A stretch of DNA of 64,000 nucleotides from an uncultured Parachlamydiaceae bacterium (GTDB lineage Bacteria; Chlamydiota; Chlamydiia; Chlamydiales; Parachlamydiaceae), in assembly GCA_963742415.1 (NCBI GenBank), contig CAVULX010000004.1, positions 1,248,001 through 1,312,000 on the forward strand, given 5' to 3'. The position numbers were made by a program, and so were the translations under genes. Below are positions 32,967 through 41,216 of this stretch, one piece after another (the stretch's first letter is position 1; each line of letters begins with the position of its first letter). The notes under the pieces were generated by a model that made no database searches, was not told the DNA's origin, and saw only the letters and a list, made by a program, of their open reading frames with translations.

Positions 32967-34061
32967 ATGGTGAACAATCTTTTAAGCCGCACTGTGGATG
33001 ATTGGACATATTTTTCCATCTCACCAATTGAAAATGTTTACACATTCCACAATCTGTCAGATAACCAAGCAAACGGGAAGGAAAAGCATTCACTCTGGGG
33101 GACTATTCCAGACACGACTTTAAATCCGCAAAATTTAAGCAATATCTCATCTAACTCTGGAAGCAAACCAATAGATGAAAAGGTGTATAAATGCTTCATG
33201 TGTCAAATGGAAACTATTCCTAAACAACGACGCGGAGGTCCTTGGGGTACAAACACCCTTTGTAATCCTTGTGGTACGAAATACGCTAAAAAAGCTTCTC
33301 TTTTAAAAGACAAAACAAACCAGGACATTCCTTACATTCCATTAGAATTTTATGTTAAACCTCAAAAGCATTATTCTTTTATAGGAGTAGGATTCAAAGA
33401 AGTGCCTGAATTCTTAGAGGAAATAAAGCAATATTTTACACCCACGAAATGTAAAGAAATCGAGGAATTAGCAAATAATTTTATAGAAATCGGGAAAAAA
33501 ACACAGAAATACAAAAAAACTCTTCTAAAAAACACTCCAATAAATGCTGACCATATCAGAACTTATGTAGAACTTGCAAGATCCCTATGTGCTATTGAGG
33601 ACAAATCTAAAAAAAATAGCAGCAATCCGTCCAAAAATAGGGAAAAGATGAAAAACACATACAAACTTGTCAGTGAGCAAAAATATGTAGGAATTACTCG
33701 AGAAGGTAAGCAAGTAGATCTTGAAAGGCTATCCCCCGATTTGGAAGCAATAGAAGCTTATATAATCAGCAGGGAAAAGCGTATTATAGCAACAAATGTT
33801 ACTGCAAACAGATCCAGAAAAACAGGAACAAAAAGAAAAAAATCTGCTGTGGATTCTGTGAAAAAGATTCCGCAACGTCGTGACCCTACTGAAGAGAAAA
33901 CCAATACATCTAAAGAGAAAGCCTCAGAAGCTCTTACTATTAATTCTGAAGGAGCTGCAAAACCGCTAAGAAAAAAAAGAAAAATTGATTCAGTGGTAGT
34001 TTCTGCGGAAAAGACTCTCAGTCGTCATGATCTGAAATTTATTTTAAATTCAGATAAATGA
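32967..34061 (+). CDS. GATA-type zinc finger protein, paralog 1 (most divergent)
   Basis: CFMC-X19-CNPC with RGGPWGTNTLC; IPLEFY..P and LEAIEAY shared with paralogs; PLRKKRK; C-terminal DLKFILN. Confidence 0.85.
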   Translation: MVNNLLSRTVDDWTYFSISPIENVYTFHNLSDNQANGKEKHSLWGTIPDTTLNPQNLSNISSNSGSKPIDEKVYKCFMCQMETIPKQRRGGPWGTNTLCNPCGTKYAKKASLLKDKTNQDIPYIPLEFYVKPQKHYSFIGVGFKEVPEFLEEIKQYFTPTKCKEIEELANNFIEIGKKTQKYKKTLLKNTPINADHIRTYVELARSLCAIEDKSKKNSSNPSKNREKMKNTYKLVSEQKYVGITREGKQVDLERLSPDLEAIEAYIISREKRIIATNVTANRSRKTGTKRKKSAVDSVKKIPQRRDPTEEKTNTSKEKASEALTINSEGAAKPLRKKRKIDSVVVSAEKTLSRHDLKFILNSDK

Positions 34062-34064
34062 CTC

Positions 34065-34097
34065 AACTTTTGAAGGGGGTTTCTCCCCCCTAAAGTT
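34065..34097 (+). terminator. Hairpin after GATA paralog 1
   Basis: aactttt-gaaggggg-tttct-cccccc-taaagtt. Confidence 0.55.
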
Positions 34098-34292
34098 TAG
34101 GACGAAAAACTTCCAAATGCTTAACCGCGAATATCGCAGGCATTCAGCCTGGGAAAGGAGTAAACTATATATTCTTTTAATTTTAAGAATTTAAACATTA
34201 CCAGTTATTTTTAATTTTACAAATAAATTATGTTTGATTATTTTTTTTGTGATTCTTTAAACAACTTTAACTTTTAATCAAGAGGTGGATTT

Positions 34293-35507
34293 ATGTCCTT
34301 TCTCAGTGAACTTGGTAATAACTATAATAATTGGGGAAATTACATCCCTCCAGATTACATGAGGAGCCCGTCGGACAATACGTCAACAAGCCAAACAAGC
34401 ACGGGGGAAGACTGTAAAGACATGGGCGCAATGGATGAGTTAAACACTCCTGGACTTGAAATATCTTCACCGCCTAATTTACATGCCTTACCATGGTTCA
34501 ATCATGCATTCAGAGCCCTTATAGATAAGGTCGAAACTGCGAATATTATTGCTAGCCTTTCAACCTCCCCCGCCCCTGTCTACATTAACATGAACATAAG
34601 CATGAATTTTCCGAATATCTTTATAGATTCAAACGAAGGCGCAAACCAATCGCAATCCCCAGCTCTGGAGAAAAAGAGGAAAAGGGTGAGAAAGGAAACA
34701 GATAAAAGTCTTATATGTTTCGTATGTTTCAATAAAAAAACACAACAAATGTGGCGCAGTGGTCCTTATGGTAAGAAAACACTTTGCAATGGATGTGGTC
34801 TAAAGTATTCAAAAGAGAGATTTAGACTAATACAAAAATGGATAAAGCACATTCCACTACAATTTTATGCAAAACCTAAGGGGGTTAAAAGGTCACCTAC
34901 TTCATTAAAGGACATAAAAAACTATTTTGATGAAAAGAAATTTCAAGAACTCGAGGCATTAACTGAGAAATATATATCAATTATGAGATCATCCGAAAAT
35001 CCAAATGCACTAATAGTTGGAAGTGATCTCATCACAGCTTATATTCGACGCGCTAAAAAACTCTGTTCTGTTGAAGAGGCTGAGCAAACCTCATCTAGAA
35101 TAGGAGAAGGCACGAGATGCGCTCGGCTAATAATAGGTGAATATACTGGAGCTACCCAGGACGGCAAAATAGAAGCGCTTCCTGAAGGACTCGCATCAGA
35201 TGCTGCTGCAATCGAAGCTTATGTCAAATGCTTTACTTTGTATAGTAATAGGGATCGTTGCCCGACAGAAGAAAAAATCGAGCACTACAAAAGGCAACTG
35301 AAATCAAAAACCCCCGAAACATCAAAAGAACCACAAACTAAAAGGCAAAAAATTGATGGGAGTGACATTGTAAGTCCTATTGACGAGATATCCCTCATGC
35401 CTGAAGAGCAAATTGATCTTACTGACGAGCCTCAAGCAATTAGAAAGCGATTTCGCTTTTATTTTAAATTCAATGGCGACTCACTTCCGATAGTCCAGAA
35501 CCCATAA
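34293..35507 (+). CDS. GATA-type zinc finger protein, paralog 2
   Basis: CFVC-X19-CNGC with WRSGPYGKKTLCNGCGLKY; KKRKRVRK. Confidence 0.9.
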   Translation: MSFLSELGNNYNNWGNYIPPDYMRSPSDNTSTSQTSTGEDCKDMGAMDELNTPGLEISSPPNLHALPWFNHAFRALIDKVETANIIASLSTSPAPVYINMNISMNFPNIFIDSNEGANQSQSPALEKKRKRVRKETDKSLICFVCFNKKTQQMWRSGPYGKKTLCNGCGLKYSKERFRLIQKWIKHIPLQFYAKPKGVKRSPTSLKDIKNYFDEKKFQELEALTEKYISIMRSSENPNALIVGSDLITAYIRRAKKLCSVEEAEQTSSRIGEGTRCARLIIGEYTGATQDGKIEALPEGLASDAAAIEAYVKCFTLYSNRDRCPTEEKIEHYKRQLKSKTPETSKEPQTKRQKIDGSDIVSPIDEISLMPEEQIDLTDEPQAIRKRFRFYFKFNGDSLPIVQNP

Positions 35508-39530: not shown

Positions 39531-39603
39531 CTTACCTTTCCAGTCCTCCAGAACCCATAATTTCAATTTATAGGCCGAAGGCTTTGGCCTTCGGCCTTAA
39601 GGT

Positions 39604-39857
39604 TTGGCATTTTAAATAAATTCCCGAAGGGAATCTTGAGATTGGACATTTTGTAAAAAAATATTTACATTATCACATCTCTATCGCCGCTACCGCATAG
39701 GCATCAAGCTAAAGTAAACTATTTCTTACCAGGCTGAAAGCCTGTCATATAATAGCCTGGGGCAGCGCCCCAGGTAATATCATGCATAATCATTTGCTTT
39801 TTCACTGATCGGTTCCATTTTATTTTGACTGACCACTTTCCTTTTTCCTTTTTTCCG
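39604..39857. repeat. Duplicated downstream block (REP fragments plus a piece of the neighbouring gene's 3' end)
   Basis: Closely matches 41234-41421 and then 41538-41600; includes CAGGCTGAAAGCCTG and CCTGGGGCAGCGCCCCAGG hairpins. Confidence 0.9.
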
Positions 39858-40031
39858 TTAGATATCCATATTTCAACCGGAGTGTTCGCTACCATCTATG
39901 TTTATTAAATAATTAAACATTACCAATTGTTTTTAATTTATAAAAATATTTTATTTGATTATTTTTTTGTAATAGATTATTATTTTTTAAGCATTAAACA
40001 AAATTAACTTTTAATTAAGAGAGGTAAATTT

Positions 40032-41216
40032 ATGGAACCCTATAATAGGTATGCTCCGGGAGAATATCGGCATCCCCCAACCCAACCAAACATAGTTCAA
40101 AGCAACCCACACTCGGGTAATTCTCCATTGATAGATTTGACGATGGAAAGTTTGGGAAATATTGCAAGTAGAACCAACCAAGCAGTTATATCACAAAACG
40201 ACACCAGACCAAATGTTACCATTAATGTCAACTATCGTCCCCAAGTAGTTATCCAAACCAGTCCAATAGAAAGAGATAGCATTCCTCAAAGAAAATTTAC
40301 TTTCTACGAATTCCAATCAACTCCAAGGGAAAGGAGAACAAAGCCAGTAGATACAAGTCAGCTTGTATGTTTCGTATGTTTTGAGCAAAAAACAGGGGAT
40401 CTGTGGCGCAGTGGTCCTCACGGCAATTACACACTTTGCAATGGATGTGGTGTAAAGTATGGAAGAAATATATATAGCCTGAAAAAAGGATTTATAAAGC
40501 ACATTCCACTACAATTTTATGCAAAACCTGAGGGAGTTCAATCTATAGAAGGCAGAGAATTAAACGACTCACCCGACTTTTTACAGAACATAAAAAAATA
40601 TTTTGATGAAAATAAATTTAAAGAGCTCGCGTCATTAGCTGAGAGATATAAATCAATTAATAGATCAACCGGTGGCCCAAAAACAGCAGTAGTTGAAATA
40701 AAAGCTAATCACATTAAAGCTTATATTCAACGTGCTAAAAACCTCTGTTCTCTTAAAGATGAAGCTGATCAAAACCCATCTGGAAGGGGAGGCACGAAAT
40801 GCCGTGCGGTGAAAATAGGTAATTATGACGGAACTACCTTTGATGGCAAAACAGAAGAGCTTTCTAAAGAACTAGCAATAGACGCTGCTGCAATCGAAGC
40901 TTATGTCCATCAGTTTACTTGGGATAGAAGTCTATGTTCGACACAAGAAAAATATGATCACAACATAAGACAACTGGCCTTGCTAGAAACATCTGAAATA
41001 GATGAAACATCAAAAGAGCCACAAGCAAAAAGGCGAAAATTTGATATCAATGACATTTTAAATCCTGTTGAGGATGACTCCTTAATGCTTGAAGATCGAA
41101 TTGCTCCTACTGGCAAGCCTGAAGGGACACAAACACAACCAAGAAGAGATTTTCGTTTAGAATTAGCTTATATTGTAAACCCTTCAAATAACGACTCATT
41201 TAATTTCAATTTGTAG
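40032..41216 (+). CDS. GATA-type zinc finger protein, paralog 6
   Basis: CFVC-X19-CNGC with DLWRSGPHGNYTLCNGCGVKY; AKRRKFDINDILNP; RLELAYIVN. Confidence 0.9.
   Translation: MEPYNRYAPGEYRHPPTQPNIVQSNPHSGNSPLIDLTMESLGNIASRTNQAVISQNDTRPNVTINVNYRPQVVIQTSPIERDSIPQRKFTFYEFQSTPRERRTKPVDTSQLVCFVCFEQKTGDLWRSGPHGNYTLCNGCGVKYGRNIYSLKKGFIKHIPLQFYAKPEGVQSIEGRELNDSPDFLQNIKKYFDENKFKELASLAERYKSINRSTGGPKTAVVEIKANHIKAYIQRAKNLCSLKDEADQNPSGRGGTKCRAVKIGNYDGTTFDGKTEELSKELAIDAAAIEAYVHQFTWDRSLCSTQEKYDHNIRQLALLETSEIDETSKEPQAKRRKFDINDILNPVEDDSLMLEDRIAPTGKPEGTQTQPRRDFRLELAYIVNPSNNDSFNFNL

Follow-up and report, generated by a model that had tools for sequence, protein, structure and literature searches.

Six tandem genes with GATA zinc fingers in a Parachlamydiaceae genome share a module with small amoebozoan GATA factors and are candidate host-nuclear regulators

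The stretch of DNA analysed here, referred to as the window, comprised 64,000 nt of the genome of an uncultured Parachlamydiaceae bacterium (C4:1248001-1312000 of a 1,336,765-nt contig), and it contained a tandem array of six open reading frames (ORF1 to ORF6) that carried true GATA zinc fingers. Sequence comparison showed that the whole module, consisting of a basic arm, a finger with 18 residues between its cysteine pairs (X18) and a C-terminal motif, matched that of small amoebozoan GATA factors well beyond the finger itself. Horizontal transfer from an amoebozoan-type host was well supported. We consider it somewhat probable that the six genes are bacterial copies of an amoebozoan-type GATA factor that were amplified locally and now act as exported regulators in the host nucleus; in this explanation we infer secretion, nuclear import, DNA binding and the recruitment of a partner.

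The six paralogs lay on the same strand at 32967-41216, exactly where the first-pass annotation had placed them, and each contained the C-x2-C-x18/19-C-x2-C pattern described there. All were encoded on the plus strand. ORF1 (32967-34061; 364 amino acids), the most diverged paralog, had its finger at 33192-33272, ORF2 (34293-35507; 404 amino acids) at 34716-34796, ORF3 (35743-36633; 296 amino acids) at 36253-36330, ORF4 (36889-38085; 398 amino acids) at 37276-37353, ORF5 (38301-39530; 409 amino acids) at 38715-38795, and ORF6 (40032-41216; 394 amino acids) at 40368-40448. The spacers between the cysteine pairs were 19, 19, 18, 18, 19, and 19 residues in this order, and the X18 finger of ORF3 read SPEWRKGPWGRNTFCNKCGLQY. 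The four zinc-ligand cysteines were invariant in all six paralogs, as were R, G-P-x-G, T, C-N-x-C-G and Y, and the Trp preceding the R was kept in five. No NCBIfam family was assigned to any of the six ORFs. Against the Pfam GATA family (PF00320; cut-off 26.8 bits), hmmscan gave 22.3, 34.8, 32.1, 31.2, 26.5, and 36.6 bits for ORF1 to ORF6, with four of the six above the cut-off. A six-frame scan of the 2.69-Mb genome returned six matches, all in the array and five of them above the cut-off, with 30.1 bits for ORF5 and 26.0 bits for ORF1. ORF1 was below the cut-off in both scans and was assigned to the GATA family because of its paralogs. None of 14 control genomes had a PF00320 match.

When a profile of the six fingers was compared with solved structures, AtGATA18 (E-value 1.1e-6), AreA and GATA-1 were retrieved, and AtGATA18 was the best match in both sequence and structure. 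The predicted finger of a first model could be aligned with 8j48_A (AtGATA18) over 38 of 38 residues (Z 5.2, root-mean-square deviation 1.0 Å). A second model, which covered ORF3 residues 150-296 and was built from a 31-row alignment, had a mean predicted local distance difference test score (pLDDT) of 79.8, with values of 90-97 in the finger. The top seven Foldseek rows for this model were all GATA fingers (TMt 0.86-0.90 for 8j48), and the E-value was just 0.09 because the domain is small (35 residues). Full-length ORF6 was modelled poorly by AlphaFold (pLDDT 41.9), and the VIA-align rows of that model outside the finger were helical, with Z below 4, and uninformative. Pfam, profile and predicted-fold matches agreed in identifying eukaryote-type fingers of the WRxGPxG/X18 kind, as had been proposed from the letters of the sequence. 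The GATA fold to which the models were matched consists of two short hairpins and a helix arranged around the zinc.

The relation to Amoebozoa was found with a profile of short chlamydial proteins, which was searched against a collection of 5.8 billion proteins; the hit list was biased towards the C-terminal motif because the profile contained it. Many small eukaryotic proteins shared one order of elements, namely K(K/R)RGRKPxDKS, followed by an X18 finger (TPEWRKGPxGxxTLCNACGLQYAK) and by the motif 20-35 residues further on. Ten hits were looked up, and the nine with an accession were all from Amoebozoa: Gocevia fonbrunei (three proteins), Paradermamoeba levis, Endostelium zonatum (two), Mastigamoeba balamuthi, Balamuthia mandrillaris (KAL6064791.1, on a 180,945-nt contig) and Stenamoeba stenopodia. 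By regular expression, the C-terminal motif followed the finger in seven of these nine (the three from Gocevia and one each from Paradermamoeba, Endostelium, Mastigamoeba and Balamuthia), and most of the seven also had the basic arm. Examples were ...STLSISSLLN in Balamuthia and ...AIDNVLNPP in Mastigamoeba, and one metagenomic protein ended with ISLLLNSPDDPNR, near IAFILNSPMDD of the window. Dictyostelid proteins (Cavenderia, Acytostelium) and a 'Phypoly' protein, whose transcript we take to be from Physarum, were also in the hit list with a basic stretch before the same type of finger. With a finger-only profile, the 120 matches listed were mostly from plants and fungi; seven of them had the motif in long tails, and none had the motif together with the arm. 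The ORF3 module was 60% identical to a Gocevia protein over 52 residues and 62% identical over 47 residues to a protein of a chlamydial relative (G010), and identities to the amoebozoan small GATA factors were overall ~53-60% over 47-53 residues. The eukaryotic affinity first claimed for the finger was thus confirmed, and it was refined in that the full module matches Amoebozoa.

Trees were built from 43-54 columns, the larger one having 88 rows and 54 columns. In the latter, plant fingers (98/99) and fungal/animal X17 fingers (96/95) formed supported clades that excluded the window family. The fold and zinc-ligand pattern are common to the window fingers and to the plant B-class factor AtGATA18/HAN (PDB 8j48), fungal AreA and animal GATA-1. 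In the 88-row tree the six window fingers formed one clade (100/83), sister to one finger of a metagenomic protein (99/80); in the first tree, the window clade (94/86) was sister to one of the G010 fingers (96/73). Eukaryotes universally have GATA fingers; in this phylum the finger is rare and its distribution patchy. Therefore, transfer from a eukaryote to the chlamydiae is the economical explanation, and the donor was most likely an amoebozoan-type host.

The basic arm in front of the finger, [KR]RGRK(P)xDKS, was clear in ORF2 (KRKRVRKETDKS; the finger is preceded by KKRKRVRKETDKS), ORF3 (KKKKRGRKELDKS) and ORF4 (SKRGRKALDSS). Its RGRK core was shared by several relatives, as in RGRKPLDKS of G010 beside RGRKELDKS of ORF3 and RGRKALDSS of ORF4. 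At the other end of the proteins, Phi-x-x-Phi-Phi-N was found in five of the six ORFs (LKFILNSDK, LHYILN, IAFILNSPMDD, IAFILNSPNDD and LAYIVNPS): ORF1 ended with ...DLKFILNSDK, ORF3 with LDLHYILN and then a terminal RPRRKKKKI, ORF4 with LDIAFILNSPMDD and ORF5 with LEIAFILNSPNDD, and ORF6 carried LELAYIVNPS... in its tail. The same motif was present in 9 of 18 GATA proteins of chlamydial relatives, mostly at the extreme C-terminus (IGYILN, ISYLLN, INYLLN, VNFLLN, IGFLLN, INDLLN, IQSLLN and IEEVLN), when 0.43 proteins were expected from shuffled tails of the 18 and the maximum in 2000 shuffles was 4. In the second model, the motif region had pLDDT values of 54-62 and was predicted to be unpacked from the finger, and this points to a short linear motif more than to a structural element. 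The motif may resemble the eh1/Pax-octapeptide (FxIxxIL, YSINGLLG), which binds Groucho/Tup1-type WD40 co-repressors.

The C-terminal motif was also considered as a general secretion tag. A loose version was found near the end of 18 of 4295 ORFs of at least 80 amino acids, 4 of which were GATA genes, and the tag was rejected because the closest non-GATA match (C3:48923-49873) was otherwise unrelated. This 316-amino-acid protein, which ends with ...YIDSILNSPEDES and thus resembles the IAFILNSPMDD tail, has a hydrophobic, signal-peptide-like N-terminus, and the likeness was judged to be due to chance.

The long paralogs corresponded to the short form plus an insert of ~200 residues between the finger and the C-terminal motif, as seen for ORF4, ORF5 and ORF6 in a 31-protein module alignment and for ORF1 and ORF2 in paralog alignments. 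This orphan domain, at about residues 150-300 in ORF4-6, was present in five paralogs, and ORF3 kept the short architecture. A 232-position profile of the five copies, searched against 1.84 billion representative proteins, matched only paralogs of the same genome; no usable match was found in the ESM Atlas (residues 150-320), and a full-length ORF6 search gave three matches, all of them paralogs from the window genome. The insert was predicted, at low confidence, to be largely helical with no clear fold match. Beyond the insert, towards the C-terminus, K-R-x-K was invariant in the five long paralogs within P..KR.K(I/F)D, the versions being PLRKKRKID in ORF1, PQTKRRKFD in ORF4, PPAKRQKID in ORF5, PQAKRRKFD in ORF6 and, in the remaining long paralog, PQTKRQKID. 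We liken this stretch to the nuclear localisation signal of c-Myc, PAAKRVKLD. An I-P-x-x-x-(F/Y/P) stretch followed the finger in proteins of Stenamoeba stenopodia (P0071) and G010 (L037), as IPWIP and IPFCRSNF, and its counterparts in the window were IKHIPLQFYAKP and CIPFEFYKKP. The start of the orphan region may, from this likeness, be older than the remainder.

The N-terminal parts of the proteins (first 75-170 residues) consisted to 43-49% of S, T, N, Q, P and G. No signal peptide or membrane segment was found in them, the maximal Kyte-Doolittle mean over 19-residue windows being 1.01, which agreed with the low-complexity N-termini without Sec signals described earlier; the N-terminus of the modelled ORF6 was predicted to be disordered. 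Basic clusters were found in all six ORFs, and every cluster previously listed as resembling a nuclear localisation signal (KKRKRVRK, KKKKRGRK, PLRKKRK, AKRRK and RPRRKKKK) was located among them. The genome encoded SctV (FHIPEP) of a type III system beside a CopN/HrpJ gatekeeper gene on contig C2, and four NTT (TLC) nucleotide transporters. A Chlam_OMP6 match was weak (21.5 bits) and below its cut-off, and the assignment to a chlamydia-like bacterium is based on the NTT and type III genes and on the chlamydial genomes in which related loci were found.

The expression signals were those of a bacterium. An AGAGG ribosome-binding site lay 6-8 nt ahead of the ATG in all six ORFs, as had been read from the sequence. 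A sigma-70-like promoter, TTGATT-N16/17-TATTAT, was found on the plus strand at 35668-35695 before ORF3 and at 36811-36839, 38223-38251, and 39955-39983 before ORF4, ORF5 and ORF6; in these four cases it belonged to an upstream block of ~150 nt that was common to ORF2-6. A terminator-like 11-bp G+C hairpin was located at 38127-38152 (+), ~40 nt past the ORF4 stop, with copies at 39572-39597 after ORF5 and at 35519-35545 after ORF2 (z-scores of the hairpins -4.0, -3.5 and -2.8).

The array, which lies 1.28 Mb into the contig, was anchored on its left by a 222-amino-acid ORF (orf222; 32169-32837, +) beside pyk (30306-32069, -) and on its right by a gene for a 764-amino-acid protein with an FGE-sulfatase domain (41494-43788, -), which was followed by uvrA (43867-49594, +; in pieces). 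The interval between pyk and uvrA had been named correctly in the first-pass annotation, but orf222 and the FGE-like gene intervene. In three relatives (G010, G004 and G013), pyk, the 222-amino-acid ORF and an intact uvrA stood side by side without a GATA gene, and the FGE-like gene was found at that backbone in G010 and G013. Therefore, the 8.6-kb array was an insertion into a conserved backbone. A copy of the right flank was detected in the ORF5-ORF6 spacer (39602-39859, +; 89-94% identical to 41233-41603), and because ~75 nt from the FGE-like gene's 3' end were part of it, the last duplication must have taken place in this chromosome. An acquired and amplified family had been suggested before and was borne out by these data. 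The Acido-Lenti-1 element (RF01687), a 45-nt G+C hairpin repeat, was found on the minus strand at 39730-39774, 41357-41401, and 41424-41468, on both sides of the ORF6 unit, and its copies may have served as recombination substrates. There were 97 matches to it in the genome (E-value <= 1e-3), often in tandem, and 49 were above the gathering score. It behaves like a dispersed REP-like intergenic element, and the unit that it flanks is the youngest of the GATA genes. The 5' end of ORF4 was tandemly duplicated within itself (36889-36930, MDPYNKF-MEPYNRY), and ORF6 begins at MEPYNRY.

The synonymous divergence among ORF4, ORF5 and ORF6 was 0.26-0.36, and the ratio of nonsynonymous to synonymous substitution rates (dN/dS) was 0.72-0.92 over the full length and 0.53-0.72 in the finger region. 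All length differences between paralogs were in frame, and six frames of 296-409 codons were open at 20-24% nucleotide divergence. In a neutral simulation, the number of substitutions found between two paralogs was placed at random, one half on each lineage, and the frames stayed open in 0.2-0.9% of the trials per lineage (P(no stop) 0.002-0.009). The open frames were under selection. The paralogs diverged fast yet retained their frames, zinc ligands, basic clusters and terminal motif, a combination typical of families that interact with a host.

The family was not confined to this genome. When 400 genomes of the phylum were sampled, PF00320 matches were found in short proteins of 11 (10 of 212 genera), which belonged to three families; among the 41 nearest genomes, six had a match. 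The GATA proteins of these relatives (G010, G335, G005, G013 and G042, among others) shared the finger type, the arm and the C-terminal motif and partly stood in small tandem arrays (three genes in G010, two adjacent genes in G013). Unlike the window genes, they had no orphan domain, were 110-352 amino acids long and occupied non-syntenic loci; the array of G010, the nearest relative by pyk (75% identity), was not at its pyk-uvrA region. None of them had a functional name in the protein collection. A finger-pattern scan of one genome per prokaryotic species gave 27 pattern matches and five confirmed loci (L042-L046), all in metagenome-assembled genomes of Parachlamydiaceae, Chlamydiia or Chlamydiales; the scan used a single narrow pattern from a 6-row alignment, and differing GATA fingers may exist in other phyla. 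Proteins in which five or six GATA-like fingers follow each other in tandem were encoded by two genomes from a different family of the phylum (L017, G220:C70; L016, G332:C14). These fingers (C-x2-C-x17/18-C-x2-C, WxxNP/DP) were weak against Pfam GATA and came without the basic arm and the C-terminal motif, and the proteins may represent a separate family.

Here, the following course of events is proposed. Amoeba-associated chlamydiae would have taken up the gene from a eukaryotic host; in this genome it entered the interval from orf222 to the FGE-like gene and was duplicated there in tandem to six copies. The proteins would leave the bacterium, most likely via the type III system with the disordered N-termini as signals; the basic clusters would drive import into the host nucleus, where the finger and the basic arm would occupy GATA-type sites. 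The retained host motif at the C-terminus would engage the protein with which the small GATA factors of the host interact and thus lead to mimicry or competition. The paralogs may address different sites through the residue directly before the finger Trp, which was Q, M, E, Q, K, and L in ORF1 to ORF6. This position corresponds, in the profile alignment to structures, to L22 of the AreA domain, which is changed in the L22V structure 6gat and which we take to be a determinant of DNA specificity that tunes the preference for TGATA or CGATA. Since the paralogs differ there, their target sites may differ as well.

Several observations weigh against this explanation. An X19 spacer, not known to us from any characterised GATA factor, was present in four of the six fingers; the TP preceding the Trp was lost in ORF2 and ORF4-6, CNAC was altered in all six fingers (CNGC/CNKC/CNPC), and ORF1 had R in place of the finger Trp as well as its score below the Pfam cut-off. 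Because the fingers depart from the consensus in these ways, DNA binding may be weakened or altered. The basic arm was degenerate in ORF5, ORF6 and also ORF1, where just D-x-S remains, and the C-terminal motif was degenerate in ORF2 (SLPIVQNP). In the 88-row tree, the amoebozoan and chlamydial (and metagenomic) fingers formed an unresolved comb, and the trees accordingly leave more than one donor lineage and number of transfers conceivable. Some amoebozoan transcriptome rows could hold transcripts of symbionts; this concern applies less to Balamuthia, whose row is from a genomic contig, and to Mastigamoeba, whose row is a gene model. A dN/dS near 1 also fits partly relaxed constraint. The G+C content at third codon positions (GC3) of the six genes was 0.27-0.35, compared with 0.417 (standard deviation 0.072) in 1039 long ORFs of the genome, and at 1-2 standard deviations below these ORFs the genes could also be expressed at a low level. 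No chaperone gene was seen beside the array.

A more far-reaching version of the same explanation, which we think possible but doubtful, holds that the module was taken over in full, including a partner-recruiting motif, and that six injected regulators with differing specificity and a new domain would form a TAL-like toolkit by which distinct host regulons are reprogrammed.

The proteins could instead be secreted decoys that bind no promoter; they would titrate a host protein that partners with the finger or with the C-terminal motif, or they would draw off a host factor that targets GATA fingers. The off-consensus fingers (X19, loss of TP, CNGC) would suit such a role, as would the host-type C-terminal motif kept in five of the six paralogs. 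GATA fingers are known as protein-binding surfaces: in the best structural match, AtGATA18 is in complex with the phytoplasma effector SAP05, and the NmrA-AreA complex (2vus) was also among the structural matches. However, invariant zinc ligands, R, the N of CNxC and G-x-x-Y, together with W-R in five of six paralogs and the basic arm in ORF2-4, are expected of a DNA-binding finger, and we regard the decoy explanation as fairly unlikely.

Use of the finger inside the bacterium, as a domesticated DNA-binding or nucleoid protein that is not exported, appears unlikely. The bacterial promoters, ribosome sites and terminator-like hairpins are compatible with it, and the export of the proteins is itself an inferred step. 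Against it, two motifs that would be of use only in a eukaryotic cell are conserved, the C-terminal motif of amoebozoan type and the invariant KRxK within P..KR.K(I/F)D. Neither the patchy distribution in the phylum nor the fast-evolving paralogs with long disordered N-termini would be expected of such a regulator, and in the closest relative a separate array occupies a different locus.

It is improbable that the six genes have lost all function since the transfer and are now decaying. The full-length dN/dS of 0.72-0.92, the low GC3 and the broken neighbouring uvrA might point that way, whereas all six frames remained open with gaps in frame at a nucleotide difference that neutral evolution would survive so rarely, and promoter, ribosome site and key residues were conserved. 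An assembly chimera or eukaryotic contamination, to which the eukaryotic domain and an array G+C somewhat below that of the flanks might lead, has next to no likelihood: the array is bacterial DNA, and a chimeric eukaryotic contig, named in the first-pass annotation as what could overturn its claim, was excluded by the position deep in a 1.34-Mb contig with flanks syntenic in three relatives, by two sequences found within the array, a copy of the FGE-like gene's 3' end and a hairpin repeat that is dispersed through this genome, and by GATA genes of relatives on contigs of 2.26 and 2.67 Mb.

The explanation that we favour, exported copies of a host GATA factor, can be compared with several known systems. 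The amoebozoan small GATA factors (Balamuthia KAL6064791.1, the EukProt proteins of Gocevia, Paradermamoeba, Endostelium and Mastigamoeba, and the dictyostelid GATA-binding factors) have the same arm-finger-motif module. Unlike them, the window genes are bacterial, intronless and equipped with bacterial expression signals; they have the ~200-residue insert in five of six cases, X19 in four of six, and unrelated N-termini. Nucleomodulins and other eukaryote-like effectors are known from bacteria, for example chlamydial NUE, Legionella RomA and Anaplasma AnkA, as well as the F-box and BTB expansions in Parachlamydiaceae. The concept is the same, since eukaryotic domains and nuclear localisation signals are combined for action in the host nucleus and the families expand within a lineage; for the window proteins, secretion is putative. 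The nucleomodulins known to us are enzymes, ankyrin or repeat proteins, and none of them, as far as we know, copies the module of a sequence-specific transcription factor from the host. TAL effectors of Xanthomonas and Ralstonia are delivered by type III secretion, bear nuclear localisation signals and bind host promoters, and their paralogs differ in DNA specificity. In contrast to the window genes, to which they have no sequence relation, they use their own repeat code and not a borrowed host domain.

Searches of the full-text literature, subscription journals being outside its coverage, yielded no description of a GATA-finger protein from chlamydiae or other bacteria; the matches concerned host GATA factors or the gatA gene. 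Within that coverage, the earlier impression that no bacterial GATA-factor effector family has been described was upheld. In a review on nucleomodulins, GATA was mentioned only as a host GATA-1 site (PMC12366366). Another paper gave gtaC and stkA as amoebozoan GATA factors and described a dictyostelid-specific motif C-terminal of the stkA finger (PMC5804921). The window genes would belong to a known kind, the eukaryote-like and probably nuclear effectors of amoeba-associated bacteria, and the copied and six-fold diversified host transcription-factor module is new as far as the literature was covered. Enzymes and scaffolds sent to the host nucleus are known; a copied host transcription factor with finger, arm and motif that has been expanded and diversified differs from these and, if the explanation is true, would be a direct route to rewriting host gene expression. 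With its six small proteins, a known class of DNA sites and one short conserved motif, the array could open a testable way to study the control that environmental chlamydiae exert over the amoebae they live in. The C-terminal motif of amoebozoan GATA factors is uncharacterised, and it must matter to the host because the bacteria kept it. The array also offers a recent and datable case of effector-family growth by tandem duplication near dispersed hairpin repeats.

Around the array, genes for cytochrome bd, murB, nusB, aconitase, pyk, dnaG and uvrA were found, and the window contained no tRNA genes as integration sites. In a tblastn search with the intact 1899-amino-acid UvrA of G010, the uvrA pieces appeared as segments in frames 1, 1, 1, 3, 2, and 2 with gaps; pyk, aconitase, dnaG and the FGE-like gene were intact, unlike uvrA. 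The broken uvrA was either a real pseudogene or a locally poor stretch of assembly. An IS200-like (Y1 transposase) gene was located at 56408-56851 (+), 15 kb downstream of the array. The genome had 13 F-box-like matches, several of them clustered at C4:637-646 kb. One of these 13 members of another eukaryote-like family, a 547-amino-acid protein with an N-terminal F-box (PF12937, 41.1 bits), was encoded in the window at 801-2444 (+).

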